Shown in pieces: positions 1,285-13,209 of a DNA stretch of 36,145 bases. Each line of letters begins with the position of its first letter. Position 1 is the first letter of the stretch. The DNA is taken from contig JAHEYA010000001.1 of the NCBI GenBank assembly GCA_023251855.1, forward strand, positions 1 to 36,145, in the 5' to 3' direction. A program made the position numbers and the translations under genes. This stretch comes from Bacteroidota bacterium (lineage in GTDB: Bacteria > Bacteroidota > Bacteroidia > 2-12-FULL-35-15). The notes beneath the pieces were generated by a model. The model had not been told where the DNA came from and did not search any database. It worked only from the letters and a program-made list of their open reading frames with translations.

Positions 1285-1935
1285 TTAATCTTTTATGCAG
1301 CGTACTGATAAACCATTTTTTTTACTGTTGATATCACGACTGGCATTGCTTTTATTATAACTTTGATCGCGGTACCATGCATTACCTTCATTATCATCCG
1401 AGGAGCTCCACCAATATCCAAAACTACCAGCATACAAGAAAAATCCATTTATATAACGGTATCCACCCGGAAGCCCACTAAAACCGCTCTTATTATTACC
1501 ATTACTAAAATTATTTATATGTGATTTCCAACCGTTCACAGCTTTCATTTTTTGCCCTGCAATATCCTCTCCACCTAAATATTCTGTTAATTTTATCCAT
1601 TCACTATCACTTGGTATATGATAACCTTTTGGTGCTAAACCACGCGGATCATTTACTGCATACCAGTTATATAGTTTTCCGTAAGTTGTTCCGTTTTTTG
1701 TTTTATTCTCGTAATAGCACCAGGCGGGCTTATGTCTGCGTCCTAATCTTTTCCATTTTCTATTTCTTTTAGCTAGTTTTATTTGATCGCCATTACTAAA
1801 TTTACTTACATTCAAGTTTTCAGTTGTCCAGTTTTGATTACCAATTTTAACAACAGGTATTTGCGCAGCTAAACCAAAAAAAACAAAGCTAAGTAGCATT
1901 GCCAGTAAGGCTTTATGTTTCAATTTTTTAGTCAT
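1285..1935 (-). CDS. Secreted FISUMP-domain protein (Fibrobacter succinogenes major paralogous domain, TIGR02145-like)
   Basis: N-terminal signal peptide (KALLAMLLSFVFFGLAAQ). Family hallmarks are present: NWTTENLNV, GKLYNWYAV, APKGYHIPSDSEWIKLTEYLGG, AGQKMKA, NKSGFSGLPGGYRY, GYWWSSS, and C-terminal GLSVRCIKD. Confidence 0.85.
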   Translation of the reverse strand: MTKKLKHKALLAMLLSFVFFGLAAQIPVVKIGNQNWTTENLNVSKFSNGDQIKLAKRNRKWKRLGRRHKPAWCYYENKTKNGTTYGKLYNWYAVNDPRGLAPKGYHIPSDSEWIKLTEYLGGEDIAGQKMKAVNGWKSHINNFSNGNNKSGFSGLPGGYRYINGFFLYAGSFGYWWSSSDDNEGNAWYRDQSYNKSNASRDINSKKNGLSVRCIKD

Positions 1936-1963
1936 TTAAAATAATTTATTTATTTTCAGGCAA

Positions 1964-1971
1964 CAAAGCTA
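1964..1971 (-). promoter_or_regulatory. Candidate -7 box (TAGCTTTG on the - strand) for the FISUMP gene
   Basis: Plus strand reads CAAAGCTA, which is TAnnTTTG on the minus strand, 28 nt upstream of the ATG at 1933-1935. Confidence 0.3.
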
Positions 1972-2572
1972 GTGATAAAACAAAAGAACATTTTTATTTT
2001 TTTATCTGGAAAAATCAGCTTCAATAATATATAATATATCTTTTTATTTAAATTATAAAAAAATTATTGTTGTTATTGGTGTGTTAGTTTAGTTTGAAAA
2101 ATTAAGCTAAAAAGATTGTAATTTTTGAATTCAACAAATTAGGCGAAGTAATAAAGAGGTTATTATTTATTAAAATACTGATAAATAGCATTATCACTAT
2201 TTATTAACACAGTGTTAGTAAACTTTAGAGCTAATAAAAATTTGATAAAAATTTATTTTTTTGTGTTAAAACTGTGTTAATTTCTTTCCTGAAATAATTA
2301 TAAAATTATCTTTGAAAAACTAAAAATTTATATATGCGATACTATAATTTAACAAAGCAAGGAAAATCGCCAACAAATTTTTAATATAAAATGAATTTAT
2401 AAACAATTTTAATGTTGATAACTGACAAGTTGAAAGCCCCAACAATAGAATAGTTTCACATTATTTCATAAACGCATGTTAATAAGCCTAAAAAACTGTT
2501 AATTAGAGTACAGTTAGTGTATAAATACGGTGTATTTTCAACCATCAAGTCGTTTTCTCTCATATATATCAT

Positions 2573-2580
2573 TAAATTTG
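2573..2580 (+). promoter_or_regulatory. Candidate -7 box (TAAATTTG) for rpiB
   Basis: Exact TAnnTTTG match 22 nt upstream of the rpiB ATG at 2603. Confidence 0.35.
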
Positions 2581-2602
2581 CTTTCTCAAAAATAAATTTC
2601 TA

Positions 2603-3025
2603 ATGAAAATAGCAATTGGTTCTGATCATGCAGGCTTTCAATTAAAAGAAAAGCTAAAAAAATATTTAATTGAAAAAGGTTTTGAACTAAAAGATTTCGG
2701 GACCTATTCCGAAGATCGTGCTGATTACCCTGATTTTGCTCACCCTGTTGCCTTAAGTGTTACAAATAAAGAAGTCGATTTTGGTTTATTGATGTGTGGT
2801 ACAGGTAATGGTATTAATATGACCGCTAATAAGCATAAAGGAATTCGTGCTGCACTATGTTGGAATTCAGAAGTAGCCGCATTGGCCCGCAGACATAATG
2901 ATGCCAATATTTTAACACTACCCGCACGTTGTATTAATGAACAAGAAGCAAAAGATTGTGTGGACGCATTCTTTAGTGCTACTTTCGAAGGAGGAAGACA
3001 TATTGAAAGAGTGAATAAAATTTAA
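2603..3025 (+). CDS. rpiB: Ribose-5-phosphate isomerase B (RpiB/LacAB family)
   Basis: 140 aa. MKIAIGSDHAGFQLK N-terminus, catalytic-Cys region LLMCGTGNGINMTANKHKGIRAALCW, and RHNDANILTLPAR. Size and motifs are typical of RpiB. Confidence 0.93.
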   Translation: MKIAIGSDHAGFQLKEKLKKYLIEKGFELKDFGTYSEDRADYPDFAHPVALSVTNKEVDFGLLMCGTGNGINMTANKHKGIRAALCWNSEVAALARRHNDANILTLPARCINEQEAKDCVDAFFSATFEGGRHIERVNKI

Positions 3026-3130
3026 ACAGCCGGGTTTTAATAAGCAAACACACACACTATTAATAAGCAAAATCAACATACCAAATTCGCACAACCTTTT
3101 ATTGCATTAGGTATACTCGCCAGTTTCTTT

Positions 3131-4648
3131 TTGTTTTTCCCCGCATTACTTTTTTCTCAAAAAGATACCATTGCAGAACGATATTCTAAAAATATAACAG
3201 CTTCCGGTATGAGCACCAATCTTCATGTTTTAGCTTCTGACGAATACGAAGGCAGAGAAACAGGTAAAAAGGGACAGAAAATGGCGGCAGACTATATTGC
3301 CAGCCAATTTAAAGCAGCAGGAATACCAGCCTATAAAAATAACAGCTATTACCAGGAATTTTTTTTAAGTGCCATTATACCCAAAAAAGCAGAGGTTTAT
3401 ATTTATAAAAAAAAATATAAAGATGGTAAAGATTATTATACTTATCCTGATCAGAGTGAGCAACGCATAGCTACCGATAGTATTCAGTTTTTGGGTTATG
3501 GCATTCAAGATCCGGAAGTGTACGATGATTATAAAAATGTAAACGTAAAAAACAGGGTGGTGATGATAATGACCGGTGAACCTTATTCAACCGATTCCAT
3601 ATCATTAATTACCGGAACCCGCACAAAATCATTATGGGCAACTTATACGAAACTAAAAATTGAAAAAGCCAGAGAGAGTGGGATTAGAGCATTGTTGATA
3701 GTGGTTGATGATGTTGCAAAGGATATTGCTGACAACAAACACCGTTTAGAATCATCTGCTTTAAAGCTTGAATTAAGCAATGAAGACATGTTTGTTATCT
3801 ACATTTCCAAAGAAATGGCAAATGATGTTTTAAAAAACTCAACATTAAAAGACCTCAAACAAAAAATTTCAAGTACTCAAAAACCGTTTGAAATAAAAGT
3901 AAAAACAAACTTTGTGATCAATGTTAAAAATGGGGTGGAGAAGGTTGGTTCAGAAAACGTTTTGGGGTATATTGAAGGGACTGATCTAAAAGAAGAACTG
4001 ATAGTGGTTACTGCACATTACGATCATTTGGGTAAAGATGGGAATGTAATTTTTAATGGGGCCGATGATGATGGCTCCGGAACAGTTGCTGTTATTGAAT
4101 TAGCAAAAGCCTTTGCTAAAGCAAAAAAAGAAGGCTTAGGTACTCGTAGAAGTTTATTATTTATGACTGTTGCAGGCGAAGAAAAAGGCTTATTAGGCTC
4201 AGCCTATTATGTTAAAAACCCCGTGTATCCTCTTAAAAATACTGTTTGCGATTTGAATATTGATATGATAGGGCGTGTGGATGCCAATCACGAAAACAAC
4301 CCCAATTATATTTATTTGATAGGATCCGATAAGTTAAGCTCTACATTGCATACTATCAACGAAAATGCAAATAAAACATACAGCCATCTGGAGCTGGATT
4401 ACACCTACAATGATGAGAAAGATAAAAACCGTTTTTATTATCGTTCTGATCATTATAATTTTGCAAAAAATGGAATCCCTGTAATATTCTATTTTAATGG
4501 CGTTCATGCGGATTATCATAAAGAAACAGATGAAGTAGAAAAAATAAATTTCGATAAAATGGAAAAAATAACACGACTAATTTTTTTCACCGCCTGGGAA
4601 CTTTCCAATAGAAATGAGCGGATTAAAGTAGACTCCAACAAGAAATAA
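3131..4648 (+). CDS. M28-family aminopeptidase with an inserted PA (protease-associated) domain. The N-terminal boundary is uncertain.
   Basis: Zn-ligand motifs of M28 are present: VTAHYDHLG, GADDDGSGTVAVIELA, AGEEKGLLGSAYY, NIDMIGR, and YYRSDHYNFAKNGIP. The track start is a TTG. The in-frame upstream codons encode the rest of a signal peptide but contain no canonical start codon (see finding). Confidence 0.85.
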   Translation: MFFPALLFSQKDTIAERYSKNITASGMSTNLHVLASDEYEGRETGKKGQKMAADYIASQFKAAGIPAYKNNSYYQEFFLSAIIPKKAEVYIYKKKYKDGKDYYTYPDQSEQRIATDSIQFLGYGIQDPEVYDDYKNVNVKNRVVMIMTGEPYSTDSISLITGTRTKSLWATYTKLKIEKARESGIRALLIVVDDVAKDIADNKHRLESSALKLELSNEDMFVIYISKEMANDVLKNSTLKDLKQKISSTQKPFEIKVKTNFVINVKNGVEKVGSENVLGYIEGTDLKEELIVVTAHYDHLGKDGNVIFNGADDDGSGTVAVIELAKAFAKAKKEGLGTRRSLLFMTVAGEEKGLLGSAYYVKNPVYPLKNTVCDLNIDMIGRVDANHENNPNYIYLIGSDKLSSTLHTINENANKTYSHLELDYTYNDEKDKNRFYYRSDHYNFAKNGIPVIFYFNGVHADYHKETDEVEKINFDKMEKITRLIFFTAWELSNRNERIKVDSNKK

Positions 4649-4757
4649 AAAGCAAACATTCAATTTATGCTTTTAATCAACTGATTTGCGGATTTTTTTT
4701 TGCAAATTTGTTTTGCACAATAAGCTTTTATGGAATCGAAAATAAAATTTTTATTGA

Positions 4758-7700
4758 ATGAAGCAGGCATTTAAAAATACAATTCAGCTCACCAAATACC
4801 TTGCAGGGGTTATAGCAACAAGCATTGTTATATCATCTTGTTCTGATAATAATAAAAAGCAGAAAAACAGTTATTCTGAAAGTGGTATGCAGGTCGCACC
4901 CGCATATACGCTTATTAAAACTCCTATTACCCCTAATCCGGATACATGTCCTCCGCCTTATACAATAGTTATTCCCGCTATTCTACCGAAAAAAATAGTT
5001 GTGGTGCCACCGCCACCACAACCGGAAACACTAACATTCAACAACGGGAAACATTTGAAAATTGTTCCGCCAGAAATCAAAAAAGCAGATTTTTTTGTAT
5101 CAATGAAAAACTATAATACGGAGCAAGGTTTGGCACAAAGTAGTATTCGTTGTGGCTATAAGGATAAAATGGGTAATCTGTGGTTTGGTACCAACGGTGG
5201 TGGAATTAGCAAATATGATGGAAAATCGTTTACAAACTATACCAGCACGCAAGGCTTTCCGGTTAATACCGTTTGGTGTATCACAGAAGACAAAAAAGGA
5301 AATATGTGGTTTGGAACTCTTGGCGCAGGGGCGTCCAAATATGATGGAAAATCTTTTACAACATATACTTCCACGCAAGGCCTTGCTAATAATTATGTTT
5401 TTGGAATCATTGAAGACAAATTGGGAAACATGTGGTTTGCGACAGATGGTGCAGGTGTGTGCAAATATGATGGAAAAAAATTTACAACTTATAATAAAGC
5501 CGATGGGCTTGCAAGCAACAACGTTTGGAGTATTACTCAAGACAAAACAGGAAACATATGGTTTGGCACATTGGGCGATGGTGTTAGCAAATACGATGGC
5601 AAATCATTTACCACTTTTAATAAAAACCAAGGATTGGCAAATAATATAGTGAGAGGAATGATGGAAGACAAAAAAGGAAATCTTTGGTTTGGCACCAATG
5701 GCGGTGGTGTAAGTAAATATGATGGTAAAACATTTACTAACTATACTGTTGATGAGGGTTTGGCAAGCAATTATATTTTTAATATCAAGGAAGATAAAAT
5801 GGGGGCACTTTGGTTTTCAACAGATGGGGGAGGTGTAAGTAAGTATGATGGTAAAACATTTGCAAACTTTACAACCAATCAGGGCTTAATTAGTAATGAT
5901 GCGATAAGCATAACCGAAGACATGGTTGGAAACCTTTGGTTTGGCACGCTTGGCGCAGGTTTAAGTGAATATGATGGAGAATCTTTAATGGCTTTTACCA
6001 CAGATCAGGGGCTTACAAACAATACTGTTTTTAGCATTTTTGAGGACAGATCGGGAAACATGTGGTTTGGAACACAAGGGGGAGGGGTTACAAAATACGA
6101 TGGGAAATCAGCGCCTGACGGGCATTCTAACTTTACAAATTATACGACCGCCCAAGGGCTTGCAAACAATTATGTTACAAGTATTGTCCAGGATAAAACA
6201 GGGAACATTTGGTTTGCAACAGGTGGAGGAGGGGTAAGTGAGTATGACGGAGAAACATTTACAAACCATACTGCCACCCAGGGTTTAGTGAGTAATTATA
6301 TTTCCTATGCTATTCAGGATAAAAAAGGAAATTTTTGGTTTTGTAGTGATGGGGGTGGTGTAAGCAAATACAATGCACAAGCAGAGCATACAGGCAAAGC
6401 CCGTTTTACAAACTTTAAAACTGCACAAGGGTTGGCAAATAATACGGTGCTTACTATCGCAGAAGATAAACAGGGAAACATATGGTTTGGTACTGATGGT
6501 GGCGGCATAAGCAAATATGACGGAAAGTTTTTTACAACTTTTAATAAATCGCAAGGGCTGTCAAACAATCACATTTTGAGTTCTATTGAAGACAGAAAAG
6601 GAAACCTTTGGTTTGGAACCGATGGAGGAGGTGTGTGTAAATATGATGGCAAATCATTTAGAAAATATAACTCCGAACTAGGACTTCCGGATGACGTGGT
6701 TTATGCAATAGCTGAAGATACCATAAATAAAATGCTATGGTTGGGAACCAATATAGGCTTGTCGGGTTTAAAAAGATCTGCATCGAGTAGTTATGGAGAA
6801 GAAGAAAATGAAAACATAAAATTTGAAAATTTTAATTTTAATACCGGCTATTCAATAAAAGATTTAAATACAAATGCATTGTTTGTTGATAGTAAAGGTA
6901 TCGTTTGGGGCGGTACTGGAGACAAGCTTATCCGGTTTGATTATAAAAAAGTAAACAAAAATCTCAACCCGCCAAATGTTTATATTCAAAGCATAAAAAT
7001 CAATAACGAAAAAGTTTGCTGGAATAATTTAATTGAAAATGAAAAAGAGAATCAGCCTAAATTATCGAGATTATTGCAAAATAAAAAGGATTCATCAATT
7101 GCCCCCCAAACAGCTGCTAATAAGGCAGAAGAGACCGAACTTTTCGGTCGCTTGTTAAATGAAGCACAACGGGATGTAATGCGAAAAAAATTCGGGGATA
7201 TAAAATTTTCAGGCATTACCAGCTTTTACTCGCTGCCCGAAAACCTTGTATTGCCTTATGGGCACAACAATATTACATTTGAATTTTTAGCAATTGAAAC
7301 GGCACATCCCAACCTTGTGCTTTACCAACACATGCTTGAGGGATACGACAATGACTGGAGTCCGCTTACAAATAGAACCACTGCCGATTTTGGTAATATA
7401 CATGAGGGCAAATATACGTTCAAATTAAAAGCCAAAAGTCCGGATGGTATTTGGTCCGAACCAATAACGTATACCTTTAAAGTATTACCGCCAACGCATC
7501 GTACCTGGTGGGCCTATGGAATTTACTTAATTGTTTTATCGGGTTTATTATTTATTCTCATCAGCTGGCGTACCACTTCTCTTCAAAAAGATAAAGAAAT
7601 TCTTGAACATACTGTGGTGGAAAGAACAGCAGAAGCGGTTTTACAAAAAGAAGAAGCAGAAAAACAAAAAAGTATTTCAGAACAAAAAAACCTGAAGATC

Positions 7701-8447
7701 ATTGATAGTATTAATTATGCAAAGCATATACAACAGGCGATTTTGCCTTCAGAGGAAGTGATGAATCATTTATTGCCCGACTCATTTATATTTTTTAAAC
7801 CCAAGGATATTGTGAGTGGAGATTTTTATTGGGCACATTTTATTGACGAACATCGTGTACTGATTGCCGTTGTTGATTGTACCGGTCATGGAGTACCCGG
7901 AGCTTTTATGAGCATCATGGGATACAATTTATTGGAACAGGCTGTAAAAACACAACCAACACATCAGCCATCAATGATATTAAATGATCTGAGTTCATCA
8001 GTAATAAAATCATTAAAACAAACCAAAGGGCTTGAGGCCCTTAAGGACGGTATGGATGTAGCATTGTGTAAAATTGACCATCAAAATAATGAGCTTGAAT
8101 TTGCCGGGGCACATAACTCCTTGTATCATATCAGAAATGGGGTGTTGACCGAAACAAAAGCCGACAGAAGTTCAATTGGCATATCGTCCAGCAACGTGTT
8201 ATTTAATAACCATAAAATAAAATTACAAAAAGCCGATTGTATTTACATATTTTCAGATGGTTTTGCAGATCAAAAAGGAGCAGCAACCCAAACAAAGTTT
8301 TTTTATCAGCCATTCAGGGAACTGTTAATACGTATTCACAGGCTGCCCATGAATAAACAAAAGGAAATATTAAACGAAACATTTGAAAGCTGGAAAGGCA
8401 GCCAGGAACAAATTGATGATGTTACGATCATTGGTATTCGTGTGTAG
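4758..8447 (+). CDS. Membrane-spanning sensor phosphatase. Domain order: lipoprotein-type signal, about 14 two-component-regulator propeller (Reg_prop) blades, Y_Y_Y domain, TM helix, coiled coil, SpoIIE/PP2C phosphatase.
   Basis: Lipobox VISSC. Repeated GNxWFGTxGGGVSKYDGKxFTxY..QGL..N.V..I.EDK units. Y_Y_Y signature YQHMLEGYDNDWSPL...GKYTFKLKAK. TM helix WWAYGIYLIVLSGLLFILISW. PP2C motifs DIVSGDFYW, VVDCTGHGVPGAFMS, DGMDVAL, SDGFADQ, and QIDDVTIIG. Confidence 0.88.
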   Translation: MKQAFKNTIQLTKYLAGVIATSIVISSCSDNNKKQKNSYSESGMQVAPAYTLIKTPITPNPDTCPPPYTIVIPAILPKKIVVVPPPPQPETLTFNNGKHLKIVPPEIKKADFFVSMKNYNTEQGLAQSSIRCGYKDKMGNLWFGTNGGGISKYDGKSFTNYTSTQGFPVNTVWCITEDKKGNMWFGTLGAGASKYDGKSFTTYTSTQGLANNYVFGIIEDKLGNMWFATDGAGVCKYDGKKFTTYNKADGLASNNVWSITQDKTGNIWFGTLGDGVSKYDGKSFTTFNKNQGLANNIVRGMMEDKKGNLWFGTNGGGVSKYDGKTFTNYTVDEGLASNYIFNIKEDKMGALWFSTDGGGVSKYDGKTFANFTTNQGLISNDAISITEDMVGNLWFGTLGAGLSEYDGESLMAFTTDQGLTNNTVFSIFEDRSGNMWFGTQGGGVTKYDGKSAPDGHSNFTNYTTAQGLANNYVTSIVQDKTGNIWFATGGGGVSEYDGETFTNHTATQGLVSNYISYAIQDKKGNFWFCSDGGGVSKYNAQAEHTGKARFTNFKTAQGLANNTVLTIAEDKQGNIWFGTDGGGISKYDGKFFTTFNKSQGLSNNHILSSIEDRKGNLWFGTDGGGVCKYDGKSFRKYNSELGLPDDVVYAIAEDTINKMLWLGTNIGLSGLKRSASSSYGEEENENIKFENFNFNTGYSIKDLNTNALFVDSKGIVWGGTGDKLIRFDYKKVNKNLNPPNVYIQSIKINNEKVCWNNLIENEKENQPKLSRLLQNKKDSSIAPQTAANKAEETELFGRLLNEAQRDVMRKKFGDIKFSGITSFYSLPENLVLPYGHNNITFEFLAIETAHPNLVLYQHMLEGYDNDWSPLTNRTTADFGNIHEGKYTFKLKAKSPDGIWSEPITYTFKVLPPTHRTWWAYGIYLIVLSGLLFILISWRTTSLQKDKEILEHTVVERTAEAVLQKEEAEKQKSISEQKNLKIIDSINYAKHIQQAILPSEEVMNHLLPDSFIFFKPKDIVSGDFYWAHFIDEHRVLIAVVDCTGHGVPGAFMSIMGYNLLEQAVKTQPTHQPSMILNDLSSSVIKSLKQTKGLEALKDGMDVALCKIDHQNNELEFAGAHNSLYHIRNGVLTETKADRSSIGISSSNVLFNNHKIKLQKADCIYIFSDGFADQKGAATQTKFFYQPFRELLIRIHRLPMNKQKEILNETFESWKGSQEQIDDVTIIGIRV
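5169..6735 (+). repeat. In-frame coding tandem repeat of about 12 canonical units of roughly 141 bp (beta-propeller blades) inside the 1229-aa sensor gene
   Basis: A periodic GN[LMI]WFGT..G.G.SKYDG peptide recurs about every 47 aa. Two further degenerate blades follow, up to about 6950. Confidence 0.85.
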
Positions 8448-8550
8448 TGAATACAAGAGAGGAAATGTTCATTAGAGGAAGGCAGCTGATATCCGTATGT
8501 TAGGGCTGAAAATAGAACTGGTTTAAAGTTTTTTAACAAAATCATTTCCT

Positions 8551-10947
8551 TTGATGAGGTTTATGGCGACAAGTAAAATAAGATCATTTTTTCTCAGCAT
8601 ATCACGCATTGCCCGCTCAAAAATACTCTGTGTTTTTGCAGCCAATGCCATCTGCACTCCTTTATTCTCTCTTGCTCAAAATCGAGATATTGATTCACTT
8701 CTCACGCTTCTTAAAAATGATAAAGCCGATACCCGTAAAGTAATTCATCTATTAAAGCTCGCAACTATTTATTCATATCAAAATCTGGATTCAGCTATTT
8801 ATTTTGCGGAGCAAGCAAAAACTTGCGCAGAAAAAACAAATGATCACAAACGAATGGCTCAATCCTATAGTGAACTTGGGTGGGATAATTTTATAAAAGG
8901 CAGCAAACGGATAGCTTTAGATTATTATTTTAAGGCATTAAAGATTTATGTAGAACAAAAAAACAAAACGGATGCAGCTATGCAGCTTGGTGGGATAGCA
9001 ATTATTTATGACAGCCAGGGCGATTATTCCACAGCACTAGATTATTATTTCAAGACATTAAAAATTGCAGAAGAAATTAAGAACCAGAAGATAGAAGCAA
9101 ATACACTCGGCAATATTGGAATTGTTTATGATAAGCGAGCTGATTATAACAAAGCGCTTGACTATTACTTCAAAGCATTGAAAATCAAAGAAATTCTTGG
9201 AGACAAAAGCGGAATCGCAAATCAGTTTGGTAGTATTGGAAATATATATGGAAGGCTTGAAAATTTTCCCCAGGCTCTTGAATATTATTTTAAAGCGCTG
9301 AAAATAGAGGAAGAAAAGGTGGGAGATAAGAATATAATTGCCGGTCTGCTTGGAAGCATTGGAATTATTTATATGAAACAAGGTAATTATAATAAAGCGT
9401 TAGATTATAATTTAAAGTCATTGAAAATTGCAGAAGAGCTTGGAGATAAAGAGGGAATTGCAATAACGTTAAGAAGTATTGCGGGTATATATAGAGAGCA
9501 AGCGGATAAAATAGGACCGGACAAAAAAAAACTTCGGGAACAATTATATAAAAAAGCTTTCGATTTTAATATGAAATCCTTGAAAATGATAGAGGAACTT
9601 GGAAACAAAAGAGAGATTGCATTGGGTCTGATAAACATTGGCTCTCTTAATATTACTCTTGGAAAATTTAAAGAAGCCGAAAAACAGCTGCAAAGAGCTG
9701 CCATAATTGGTAATAATATTGGTACGATCGATTATGTGATGCAATCGGAAGAGTTACTCTCCAAACTGTATGATACATTGGGCAGGAGCAAAGAGGCCCT
9801 TGTTCATTATAAAAAGGCAATGGCGCTAAAGGATTCTCTTTCCATTGAGGAAAACAAAAAACAATTAGTGCGCAAAGAAATGAATTACGAGTTTGATAAA
9901 AAAGAAACTGCAACAAAAGCAGAAAATGAAAAACAACAAGCGATAGCGCAGGAAAAAAATCACAAACAAAAAATTATCAGTTGGCTGATCGCTGGTGGTT
10001 TGCTCCTTGCTTTGTTATTTTCCGGTTTTGTTTTTCGCTCACTCCGGACAACCCGCAAGCAAAAAGACATTATTGAATTGCAAAAAAACGAAGCAACACA
10101 ACAAAAACATATTGTTGAAGAAAAACAAAAAGAAATTGTAGATTCAATTACGTATGCAAAACGCATACAAACAGCTCTACTTACAAGTGAAGAATATATC
10201 AATGAACATTTGCCTGCCGAGCATTTTATTTTGTTTAAACCCAAAGACATTGTGAGCGGAGATTTTTATTGGGCGCTAAGCATGAGATTTTTACCCGGAT
10301 GGGATATGGGAACCAACAAGTTAAAAATGCCAATTGATGCCCCACGTAAAAATATATTTTATATGGCTACTGCCGATTGTACCGGCCATGGTGTACCTGG
10401 CGCCTTTATGAGTATGCTAAACATTTCTTATCTGAATGAAAATATAATGGAACGAGGCTTACGTTTGCCAAACGAAATATTAAATTCACAACGCGAAAAA
10501 ATTATTCAGGCCTTAAACCCAAAAGGAAGTATTGAAAAATCAATGGATGGGATGGATTGCATACTTTGTGCATTCGATTTTGATAAAATGCTTTTACATT
10601 TTGCAGCTGCAAATAATCCACTATGGTTAGTGCGTAATGGAGAACTAACCGAATATAAAGCAGATAAAATGCCTGTGGGGAGATATAATGAAAATATGGA
10701 TTCATTTACTTTGCAAACAATACCGATGCAAAAAGGGGATATTATTTATACCTCTACCGATGGTTATGCCGACCAGTTTAACGCCAGAGGAAAAAAATTA
10801 ATGAAGAAAACATTTAAAGAACAATTGCTTAAAATTCACGGCCAATCAATGAGCGAACAAAAAAAATCGTTGAATCAATTTTTCGAAAACTGGAAAGGAA
10901 ATATAGAGCAGGTTGATGATGTGTGTATTATTGGTGTCCGCATTTAG
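8551..10947 (+). CDS. TPR-repeat sensor phosphatase. Domain order: signal/anchor, about 9 TPR units, TM helix, coiled coil, SpoIIE/PP2C domain.
   Basis: Repeated ALDYYFKALKI.EE.GDK.GIA motif. TM helix IISWLIAGGLLLALLFSGFVF. IVDSITYAKRIQTALL linker. PP2C motifs DIVSGDFYW, ADCTGHGVPGAFMS, DGMDCIL, TDGYADQ, and QVDDVCIIG. The track start is TTG 8551; ATG at 8554 or 8563 is more likely. Confidence 0.88.
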   Translation: MMRFMATSKIRSFFLSISRIARSKILCVFAANAICTPLFSLAQNRDIDSLLTLLKNDKADTRKVIHLLKLATIYSYQNLDSAIYFAEQAKTCAEKTNDHKRMAQSYSELGWDNFIKGSKRIALDYYFKALKIYVEQKNKTDAAMQLGGIAIIYDSQGDYSTALDYYFKTLKIAEEIKNQKIEANTLGNIGIVYDKRADYNKALDYYFKALKIKEILGDKSGIANQFGSIGNIYGRLENFPQALEYYFKALKIEEEKVGDKNIIAGLLGSIGIIYMKQGNYNKALDYNLKSLKIAEELGDKEGIAITLRSIAGIYREQADKIGPDKKKLREQLYKKAFDFNMKSLKMIEELGNKREIALGLINIGSLNITLGKFKEAEKQLQRAAIIGNNIGTIDYVMQSEELLSKLYDTLGRSKEALVHYKKAMALKDSLSIEENKKQLVRKEMNYEFDKKETATKAENEKQQAIAQEKNHKQKIISWLIAGGLLLALLFSGFVFRSLRTTRKQKDIIELQKNEATQQKHIVEEKQKEIVDSITYAKRIQTALLTSEEYINEHLPAEHFILFKPKDIVSGDFYWALSMRFLPGWDMGTNKLKMPIDAPRKNIFYMATADCTGHGVPGAFMSMLNISYLNENIMERGLRLPNEILNSQREKIIQALNPKGSIEKSMDGMDCILCAFDFDKMLLHFAAANNPLWLVRNGELTEYKADKMPVGRYNENMDSFTLQTIPMQKGDIIYTSTDGYADQFNARGKKLMKKTFKEQLLKIHGQSMSEQKKSLNQFFENWKGNIEQVDDVCIIGVRI

Positions 10948-11004
10948 CAAATGCCATATAAGTGAATATGGATTTTACAGGGACTTGTAAATTTTAATTT
11001 AAAA

Positions 11005-13209
11005 ATGAAAAGCAATTTTTCAAGTAAAAAAAAATCATATTTTATCATACTTCTCTGTGTAATTTGCGTTCCATTTTCCTTTTCTCAAAATCGAATTACG
11101 GACTCTCTTCTTACACTTCTTAAAAACGATAAAAATGATACCAACAAAATAATCCACCTCAATAGTCTGGGTTGGGATTTTTTGTATGAAAATCCGGATA
11201 CCTCTACTGTTCTCAGCAATCAAGCCCTTGATGTTTTTATACAACTTCCATATTCCATTCGAAACGGAAAAAGAGGAAAGCATTTTCTTGCTCAAACATA
11301 CGGCAATCTTGCAGTTTATCAAACAATACTGGGGAACTATACTGTTGCTCTTGATTTTTATTTAAAAGCACTGAAACTTGATGAGGAGCTTGGAGATAAA
11401 ACCGGTATCGCTAAACGCTACGGAAACATTGGGCTTCTTTATATGGGGCAAGAGGATTACCCCCAAGCGTTGGAGTACTTATTCAAAGCATTAAAAATTT
11501 CAGAAGAATTGCGAAATAAAGATGCAGTTGCAAAACATCTTGGCAATATCGGAAACGCATATCTCGCTAAGGCCGACATATTCAAACAAAGCGGGAACTT
11601 AAATCTGGCAAATCGAAATTATACAAAAGCATTAGGGTTTCATTTCAAAGCGCTAATGATGAAAAAAAACTTAAATAATAAAACGGGAATAGCAATCACT
11701 TTAGGCAACATAGGGGATACTTATTTTGCGCAGGGAGATTATACCCAAGCGCTGGATTATCTTTTTAGATCACTTAAGTTGGATGAAGAGCTTGAAAATA
11801 AAGTAGAAATTGCAACAATGCTTAGCAGCATAGGCCAGATTTATATTTCTTTAAAAAAATATAAAGAAGCGTGTAATTGTTTGCAGCGCTCTGTAGGTGT
11901 TTGTTGTAGCATAGGCGCAATGAATAAGGCAATAGGCGCATATTCCAGCTTAAGCCTGCTTTACGAAAAATCAACAATTTCTTTACCCGACACCACCGGA
12001 GGTAAACTTTTAAATATGGAGCAAATGCGTTTACGCTCGATGTATTATTTTAAACGATCAACCGCAATCAAAGAGATGCTTGCTAGCCTTGAATTAAAAA
12101 AACAGATGGTGCGTAAAGAAATGAATTATCAGTTTAACAAAAAAGAATCTGCCACCAAAGCTGAGCAAGATAAAAAAGATGTTATAACTGCCACAGAAAA
12201 AAACAAACAAAACTTTGTGCTGATTTTAGTGTCCTGTGTATTACTTCTCGTTTTTTTATTTGCAGGGTTTGTTCTTCGCACACTGCGCATTACCAGTAAA
12301 CAAAAAAATATAATTGAATTGCAAAAAAATGAAGTTCACCGCCAAAAAGAAATTGTTGAGAAACAGAATCTCACACTGGAAATGCATCAAAAAGAGATCA
12401 TTGATTCAATAACCTATGCTAAGCACATACAAACAGCTCTACTTACAAGCGATGAGTATATAAAAAATAATTTGCCGGCCGAATATTTTATTTTATTCAA
12501 ACCAAAAGACATTGTGAGTGGTGATTTTTATTGGGCGCTCAGCATGCCCTTTTTACCGGGTTGGGACCTGGGAACTAACAAAGTAAAGTTGCAGACCCAT
12601 GCCGAACGCAAACATATATTTTACATAGCTACAGCGGATTGTACAGGGCATGGTGTACCCGGTGCTTTTATGAGTATGTTAAACATTTCATATCTTAATG
12701 AAAACGTTATAGAACGCGGTATACGTCTCCCGCACGATATATTAAATTCTCAACGCAAAGAAATTATTCAAGCCTTAAACCCGATGGGAAGTACAGAAGA
12801 ATCAAACGATGGTATGGATTGTGCGCTTTGTGTTTTCGATTTCGATAAAATGCTTTTACATTTTGCATTAGCAAACACTCCTTTGTGGTTAATCAGAAGT
12901 GGTGAACTCACAGAATACAAAGCCGACAAAATGCCAGTAGGTAAACATAACGACAAAATAGACCCCTTTACATTGCATACATTGCCTTTGCTTAAAGGGG
13001 ATATTGTTTATACCTCCACAGATGGGTATGCCGATCAGTTTGGGGTCAATGGAAAAAAGCTGCTGAAGAAAATAGTTAAAAAAGAGCTACTTAAAATTCA
13101 CCATTTACCAATGATTGAGCAAAAACAATATTTAGATCAGTATTTTGAAAATTGGAAAGGCGATATAGAGCAGGTGGATGATGTGTGTATAATTGGTATT
13201 CGCATTTAA
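11005..13209 (+). CDS. TPR-repeat sensor phosphatase (SpoIIE/PP2C output), a tandem paralog of 8551..10947
   Basis: Same architecture as its neighbour. It shows near-identical stretches to it, for example ILFKPKDIVSGDFYWALSM, ADCTGHGVPGAFMSMLNISYLNEN, GELTEYKADKMPVG, and FENWKG.IEQVDDVCIIG. Confidence 0.88.
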   Translation: MKSNFSSKKKSYFIILLCVICVPFSFSQNRITDSLLTLLKNDKNDTNKIIHLNSLGWDFLYENPDTSTVLSNQALDVFIQLPYSIRNGKRGKHFLAQTYGNLAVYQTILGNYTVALDFYLKALKLDEELGDKTGIAKRYGNIGLLYMGQEDYPQALEYLFKALKISEELRNKDAVAKHLGNIGNAYLAKADIFKQSGNLNLANRNYTKALGFHFKALMMKKNLNNKTGIAITLGNIGDTYFAQGDYTQALDYLFRSLKLDEELENKVEIATMLSSIGQIYISLKKYKEACNCLQRSVGVCCSIGAMNKAIGAYSSLSLLYEKSTISLPDTTGGKLLNMEQMRLRSMYYFKRSTAIKEMLASLELKKQMVRKEMNYQFNKKESATKAEQDKKDVITATEKNKQNFVLILVSCVLLLVFLFAGFVLRTLRITSKQKNIIELQKNEVHRQKEIVEKQNLTLEMHQKEIIDSITYAKHIQTALLTSDEYIKNNLPAEYFILFKPKDIVSGDFYWALSMPFLPGWDLGTNKVKLQTHAERKHIFYIATADCTGHGVPGAFMSMLNISYLNENVIERGIRLPHDILNSQRKEIIQALNPMGSTEESNDGMDCALCVFDFDKMLLHFALANTPLWLIRSGELTEYKADKMPVGKHNDKIDPFTLHTLPLLKGDIVYTSTDGYADQFGVNGKKLLKKIVKKELLKIHHLPMIEQKQYLDQYFENWKGDIEQVDDVCIIGIRI

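Follow-up and report, generated by a model that had tools for sequence, protein, structure and literature searches.

Three tandem genes in the window, a 36,145-nucleotide stretch of DNA from a Bacteroidota bacterium, encode membrane-anchored sensor phosphatases (P0001, P0002 and P0003) whose PP2C domains, as judged from sequence comparison and a structural model, belong to the SiaA subfamily of PPM/SpoIIE phosphatases. The window corresponds to C477, which no other contig exceeds in length in a metagenome-assembled genome (MAG; G000) of 2.96 Mb, which is 76% complete with 4.9% contamination and is divided into 520 contigs. From their sequences and the gene content of this and related genomes, the trio probably act as sensory inputs, among many others, to SiaB/SiaC partner switches whose genes lie at other loci of the genome, and are best filed as a Bacteroidota variant of the known SiaABC system. 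To our knowledge, work on the SiaABC partner switch is confined to Pseudomonas aeruginosa, in which a diguanylate cyclase is controlled by a single phosphatase, a single kinase and a single switch protein. The SiaABCD system of that species has been described in detail, and DUF1987, the family to which SiaC belongs, has been noted as widespread (PMC7647112, PMC8457831).

The initial annotation had described three consecutive plus-strand genes for proteins of 1229, 798 and 734 aa with a common topology, and both points are borne out. The open reading frames (ORFs) run in the same direction on the plus strand at 4758..8447 (P0001, 1229 aa), 8551..10947 (P0002, 798 aa) and 11005..13209 (P0003, 734 aa), with intergenic gaps of 103 and 57 bp; P0002 starts with a TTG codon at 8551, and an ATG follows one codon downstream at 8554. 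Pfam matches and hydrophobicity agree on one layout, namely a signal or anchor, an extracytoplasmic sensor, one transmembrane (TM) helix, a helical linker and a PP2C domain. In P0001, a lipobox-like N-terminal signal or anchor precedes a Reg_prop propeller (eight stretches, 227 bits in Pfam), a Y_Y_Y domain (aa 851-909, 7308..7484; PF07495, 45.9 bits), a single TM helix (hydrophobic segment, aa 917-937, 7506..7568) followed by basic residues that mark the cytoplasmic side, the helical linker and a SiaA-type PP2C/SpoIIE domain (aa 1030-1229, 7845..8444). P0002 and P0003 each have a signal peptide, a periplasmic TPR array (TPR_12/TPR_1 in Pfam; aa ~30-322 in P0003), a TM helix seen as a hydrophobic segment (aa 475-495, 9973-10035, and aa 404-424, 12214-12276, respectively), a linker, which is helical in P0003, and a SiaA-type PP2C/SpoIIE domain (aa 605-797, 10363-10944, and aa 540-733, 12622-13206), all on the plus strand. 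The N terminus is a signal-peptide-like or lipobox-like anchor in all three proteins, and in each a single strong hydrophobic segment separates the sensor from the PP2C domain and is followed by an R/K-rich stretch, which places the sensor outside the cytoplasm and the PP2C domain inside. An AlphaFold2 model of P0003, with a mean predicted local distance difference test (pLDDT) score of 81, displays a TPR solenoid, a long helix passing through the TM segment, a second linker helix and a PP2C sandwich.

The metal-binding motifs SGDFYW, DCTGHGVPGA, DGMD, (S/T)DG(F/Y)ADQ and (I/V)DDV are intact in all three proteins. Within them, GDFY, DCTGHG, DGMD, DG(F/Y)xDQ and DD are invariant across an alignment with relatives and line up with the metal-site region of the SiaA structure 6K4E, so that the aspartate motifs originally read as intact stand, with no loss of a catalytic residue. 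The conserved SI.YAK.IQ.A.L motif that had been placed in a coiled coil is likewise real, but it is not specific to coiled coils. It lies at the beginning of the PPM domain and is common to SiaA, since DSI(N/T)YAK(H/R)IQ (DSI.YAK.IQ.A.L) aligns with DSLDYASLIQRAILP of SiaA, which is the entry helix of that domain.

Sequence and fold comparisons both lead to SiaA. When the linker and PP2C domain of P0001 were compared with solved structures using phmmer, the top match was SiaA-PP2C (6K4E, E = 1.8e-39), and the second, RssB, scored 9e-5; identity to SiaA is ~40% by our own count over ~280 aligned residues. The SiaA family (NF038263) is the best NCBIfam match of all three proteins, at 210, 143 and 139 bits over its C-terminal half, and the linker and PP2C domain of P0001 together correspond to SiaA positions 380-657. 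In a Foldseek search with the P0003 model, 6K4E was the top fold (template-modelling score 0.87, 30% identity), ahead of MtX, RssB, tPphA and SpoIIE. The trio thus resemble SiaA of the P. aeruginosa SiaABCD system (PA0172) in the sequence and fold of linker plus PP2C and in their intact metal motifs, but also in being membrane-anchored sensor phosphatases and in sharing a genome with genes for a SiaB-like kinase and a SiaC-like phosphoprotein in which the phospho-Thr/Ser motif is conserved. The differences lie elsewhere. SiaA has its own N-terminal sensor region, to which the periplasmic Reg_prop/Y_Y_Y propeller or TPR array found here is unrelated in sequence, and it is encoded in an operon with siaB and siaC, whereas the trio are not in such an operon and contig C477 has neither gene. 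Moreover, P. aeruginosa has one copy of SiaA while tens of paralogues occur per genome here, and for SiaD, the diguanylate cyclase that is the output of SiaABCD, no GGDEF protein was detected in the 76%-complete MAG.

The putative partners are, however, present elsewhere in the same genome. We found five SiaB kinase domains (NF038262/DUF6272, 124-168 bits) and six SiaC genes (PF09345/DUF1987, 96-153 bits), the products of which match the solved SiaB/SiaC complex 6KKO. Five of the SiaC genes are complete and each adjoins a SiaB gene (contigs C35, C182, C209 and C425), while the sixth is truncated where contig C493 ends. The phospho-acceptor of SiaC, T68 in P. aeruginosa (LLYLNTSS; PMC7647112), lies in a motif that is conserved in the MAG, where it reads YFNTSS or YFNSTS. 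No Ser/Thr-type protein kinase family other than SiaB was found in the MAG, a whole-genome search for Hanks-type kinases (Pkinase) having given no match. On the phosphatase side, there are 34 SpoIIE matches in Pfam, and a profile built from the PP2C domains of the trio finds ~35-38 ORFs, many of them cut by contig ends. In other genomes, a close-relative scan of contigs with P0003 gave no match, and a PP2C-domain profile was used; carriers of the family include a Labilibacter strain (Marinilabiliales). Some of these paralogues lie next to switch genes. On C425, two TPR-PP2C genes are convergent on siaC and a fused double siaB, and on C209 the gene order is PP2C-siaB-siaC. The C425 region at 3481-5078 (minus strand) holds the fused double SiaB, which is 404 aa long with two DUF6272 domains, and then siaC, an arrangement that recurs in G002, L035, L037 and L100. 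The C209 phosphatase gene (1759-6657, plus strand) encodes a 1632-aa protein with TPR, four GAF, PAS and PP2C domains; it matches the SpoIIE profile in part (positions 2-140 of 192), and the PP2C domain may, from this, be degenerate or interrupted.

The initial annotation had instead viewed the three proteins in an RsbU/SpoIIE-type frame, in which a STAS protein, an RsbW-type kinase and a sigma factor would be needed, and had remarked that no partner-switching genes lie nearby. The remark is correct. No STAS, HATPase_c_2, SiaB, SiaC or sigma-factor domain occurs in the window ORFs scanned by domain search, no genome-wide search for sigma factors having been made, and whole-genome family searches give no match to the first four on C477. 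The frame itself fits poorly. As classical RsbU/SpoIIE-type enzymes, the trio would dephosphorylate a STAS anti-anti-sigma factor and so release a sigma factor bound by an RsbW-type kinase whose gene lies at another locus, which we consider very improbable even though all three carry a Pfam SpoIIE domain (PF07228; 77.4, 62.3 and 53.6 bits in P0001-P0003, against a cut-off of 25). The genome-wide search for STAS and HATPase proteins proposed at the time succeeds for the first only: the MAG has a single STAS gene, on contig C387, flanked by a Fur-family gene and by purA and with a RelA/SpoT-like fragment farther along, and nothing in it scores above the cut-off for HATPase_c_2. One STAS gene in such a setting, among fur, purA and relA-like genes, contrasts with at least 34 phosphatases, and the PP2C domains of the trio match SiaA far better than RssB, SpoIIE or MtX. 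A better candidate for a STAS partner is a distinct SpoIIE phosphatase on C139 that is single-copy in congeners. This 407-aa protein (4023-5246, plus strand) belongs to another subfamily, with 125 bits in Pfam versus 28 bits with the trio profile; its gene is downstream of an lpxD-like gene, there is one such high-scoring copy per congener examined, and the protein may act with the lone STAS protein. The likeness of the trio to RsbU, RsbP and SpoIIE of the Firmicutes is one of design, a PPM/SpoIIE domain after a helical linker from a sensor module, and of logic, a phosphatase opposing a kinase on a small STAS-fold switch protein as in RsbU/RsbV/RsbW. The predicted parts differ, the substrate being DUF1987/SiaC rather than PF01740 and the kinase SiaB/DUF6272 rather than RsbW/HATPase_c_2, and the target of the RsbU switch is a sigma factor, while none is implicated here.

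Phylogenetic profiling, another check proposed with the initial annotation, ties SiaA-like PP2C domains to SiaB and SiaC without exception. We used a set of 31 relatives and an even draw of 120 high-quality genomes across Bacteroidota; match counts in the larger searches are lower bounds, with 27 candidates scored per genome in one search of the relatives and 9 in one search of the phylum draw. SiaA-like PP2C and SiaB are both present in the same 25 of 31 relatives and both missing from the same 6, and SiaC occurs in those 25 and in one incomplete genome. The phylum draw is equally consistent: the same 8 of 120 genomes, spanning at least five families, hold all three families and the other 112 hold none, with 0 discordant. 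Across all 151 genomes, a SiaA-like PP2C without SiaB and SiaC was never found. In some relatives, the link is physical. A Reg_prop/Y_Y_Y-PP2C gene, siaB and siaC stand in a row, as an operon, in G027, while the single system of G030 consists of a HAMP-GAF-PAS-PP2C gene, siaB and siaC, then a TerB-fused ABC exporter. In L100, one TPR-type and two Y_Y_Y-type PP2C genes in tandem abut two siaC genes and a double siaB, and in L035 and L037 five tandem TPR-PP2C genes abut siaC and a double siaB. Mixed arrays like the trio are therefore physically tied to SiaB/SiaC elsewhere.

Such proximity is the exception, since siaB or siaC lies within 6 kb of only 4-5 of 80 SiaA-like loci sampled across Bacteroidota (~94% without), and the absence of nearby partner genes is therefore the normal state of the family. 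Tandem phosphatases occur at 11 of these 80 loci. The scarcity of neighbouring switch genes, together with the excess of phosphatases (~35-47) over SiaB/SiaC pairs (2-9), would also be expected if the proteins were active sensor phosphatases with other Ser/Thr-phosphorylated substrates, such as transporters, enzymes or SiaB itself, many paralogues then meaning many targets. We regard this as unlikely, because the family never occurs without SiaB and SiaC in the genomes surveyed, because arrays of the same architectures abut siaC/siaB in relatives, and because no Hanks-type kinase that could make other phospho-substrates was detected in the MAG; Hanks kinases as the source of substrates were accordingly dropped as a candidate. 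Although the initial annotation held the substrates to be unknown, their class can thus be inferred from the likeness to SiaA, the SiaB and SiaC genes in the genome and the co-occurrence pattern.

If the trio indeed feed SiaB/SiaC switches, a periplasmic ligand, or a cue from the envelope or outside the cell, would be sensed by the propeller of P0001, which resembles that of hybrid two-component systems (HTCS), or by the TPR solenoid of P0002 and P0003. The signal would pass through the one TM helix and the helical linker and alter the packing or activity of a dimeric, Mn/Mg-dependent PP2C. We infer this step by analogy, with RsbU, for which a coiled-coil linker mechanism has been shown and proposed to be general for PPM phosphatases (PMC12143880), and with SiaA-PP2C, which is a dimer in the crystal (PMC7647112). 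The active phosphatase would then take the phosphate off the conserved Thr/Ser of SiaC (DUF1987, STAS-like), where a SiaB-family kinase would have put it, and homology, gene inventory, co-occurrence and operon context all argue for this reaction. Unphosphorylated SiaC would, in turn, bind and regulate an output protein. With SiaB/SiaC pairs at no fewer than four other loci (at least 4), ~35 inputs in the MAG, and 44-47 in complete congeners, would converge on a handful of switches.

As for the output, cyclic di-GMP (c-di-GMP) was rejected for now, since a whole-genome search of the MAG for GGDEF gave no match. A candidate for a non-cyclase output is a TerB-fused ABC exporter of ~1030 aa (TerB + ABC_tran + ABC2_membrane), encoded near siaC both on C493 (223-4548, minus strand) and in G030 (L115, 9008-13113). 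On C493, an uncharacterised gene for a 282-aa protein lies between siaC and the exporter gene. This protein and a 278-aa protein encoded beside siaB in G018 were considered as a shared output and discarded, as they are unrelated.

Several points weigh against assigning the trio to SiaB/SiaC switches. None of the three proteins reaches the equivalog cut-off of 700 bits for SiaA (NF038263), their scores falling short because only profile positions ~380-657 match, the first two thirds of each protein having no relation to SiaA. None of the three genes adjoins siaB or siaC, and no particular SiaC can be assigned to them. With ~45 phosphatases for 2-9 switches, some paralogues may have other substrates. 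The genomes that display the co-occurrence are related and not statistically independent, so the pattern, strong as it is, comes with no formal statistic, and the absence of RsbW, GGDEF and Pkinase from G000 is provisional in a MAG of this completeness and fragmentation.

The initial annotation had treated the three-gene array as a puzzle in its own right, but the trio are only 3 of ~35 paralogues in a family where tandem arrays and positions without partner genes are usual. Phosphatase arrays are common in the MAG (for example, on C425, C470, C458, C512 and C30), and arrays of three and four genes recur in near-complete congeners. These members of the same genus have 44-47 SpoIIE domains each but 2-9 SiaB and 2-9 SiaC, together with 30-41 HisKA domains; genome by genome, SpoIIE and HisKA domains number 34 and 8 in G000, 44 and 30 in G002, 46 and 41 in G014, and 47 and 39 in G018. 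The sensors of the G000 paralogues comprise ~5 of the Reg_prop/Y_Y_Y type, ~16 of the TPR type and a few that are multi-TM or other. In a tree of PP2C domains, P0002 and P0003 group with C470_2509 (support 100/99), and P0001 belongs to a different clade, together with the phosphatase next to the SiaC module on C425 (support 100/99), a hint that P0001 may pair with a C425-type module. The PP2C phylogeny is not mirrored in the type of sensor, which points, at the level of sequence, to domain shuffling between sensors and catalytic domains.

P0002 and P0003 have 74% identity between the TM helix and the C terminus and 44% in the sensor. As read from the sequences, they are a tandem duplicate specific to this lineage, in which divergence has been much greater in the sensors than in the catalytic halves. 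They also share an insertion after GDFYWA (LSM.FLPGWD.GTNK..., approximately 10069-10146 and 12319-12396), which appears as an alignment gap of ~20 residues, is absent from P0001 and SiaA, and is modeled with low confidence in P0003; it may alter contacts with a substrate or regulator. The array is a lineage-specific expansion. In G002, where the homologue of the downstream neighbor P0004 is 76% identical, there is no phosphatase between the M28 peptidase and P0004 homologues, and none was found beside P0004 in G018, G015 and G003 apart from one unrelated partial match; the array, which lacks synteny even in the closest species sampled, thus does not form a conserved operon.

This lack of synteny would also suit an array of decaying duplicated DNA, that is, non-functional or unexpressed paralogues left by the expansion of the family, as would the fact that at least one other paralogue looks frameshifted. 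For the trio, we judge decay to be extremely improbable: none of the three ORFs is truncated or contains an internal stop, the catalytic motifs, TM helix and signal peptides are intact, and the contrast in identity between the catalytic halves and the sensors of P0002 and P0003 is the pattern of maintained function. The paralogue in question, a TPR-PP2C gene inside a three-gene phosphatase array on C512, appears split into two overlapping frames (1623-3476 and 3451-3849, plus strand) and may represent a frameshift, a pseudogene or an assembly error.

The gene downstream of the array, P0004 (13216-16803, minus strand), has its stop codon 6 bp from that of P0003. Its product, of 1195 aa, has a signal peptide, ends in ...RAYF and belongs to no Pfam or NCBIfam family. 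P0004 is single-copy and conserved across the class, identity being 76% for the nearest species and 30-50% for other families, and probably forms a large outer-membrane barrel. Scans for sigma-70 promoters, terminators and the Bacteroidetes -7 motif TAnnTTTG found nothing above chance and no site in the three intergenic gaps.

Two further systems share sensor architecture with the trio. P0001, and only P0001, has the same periplasmic module as the HTCS of Bacteroides, with Reg_prop (at the score given above) then Y_Y_Y and then one TM helix. The output differs, since P0001 ends in a PP2C domain and has no HisKA, HATPase, receiver or AraC module, and there are no genes of a polysaccharide utilization locus (SusC/SusD) near the trio. 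Similarly, among the TPR-sensor histidine kinases of Bacteroidota, Porphyromonas FimS (NF053520) is matched partially, at 114 and 74 bits, through its periplasmic TPR and TM regions; its output is a histidine kinase, in contrast to the PP2C domain found here.

The locus itself is modest, a typical lineage-specific tandem array within its family. What sets it apart from SiaA is that the same catalytic core is wired differently, to periplasmic sensor modules that Bacteroidota normally put on histidine kinases, and that this core is multiplied to dozens per genome and apparently uncoupled from c-di-GMP. It is quite possible, and we propose it tentatively, that transmembrane signaling in this lineage is largely a many-to-few funnel, in which ~45 periplasmic-sensor PP2Cs, each tuned differently, would act on 2-9 SiaB/SiaC switches without a c-di-GMP enzyme and with another effector (e.g. 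the TerB-fused ABC exporter), the trio being three of the inputs. In such a funnel, PP2C sensor phosphatases would be as numerous as histidine kinases or more so. The literature that we searched contains no description of this architecture, nor did we find in it a paper on Sia-type switches, Y_Y_Y/TPR-PP2C sensor phosphatases or a SpoIIE expansion in Bacteroidota. If the assignment to SiaB/SiaC switches holds, it would provide a likely substrate class for very many Bacteroidota proteins annotated only as "SpoIIE family phosphatase" and would represent a convergent, integrator-type signaling design.

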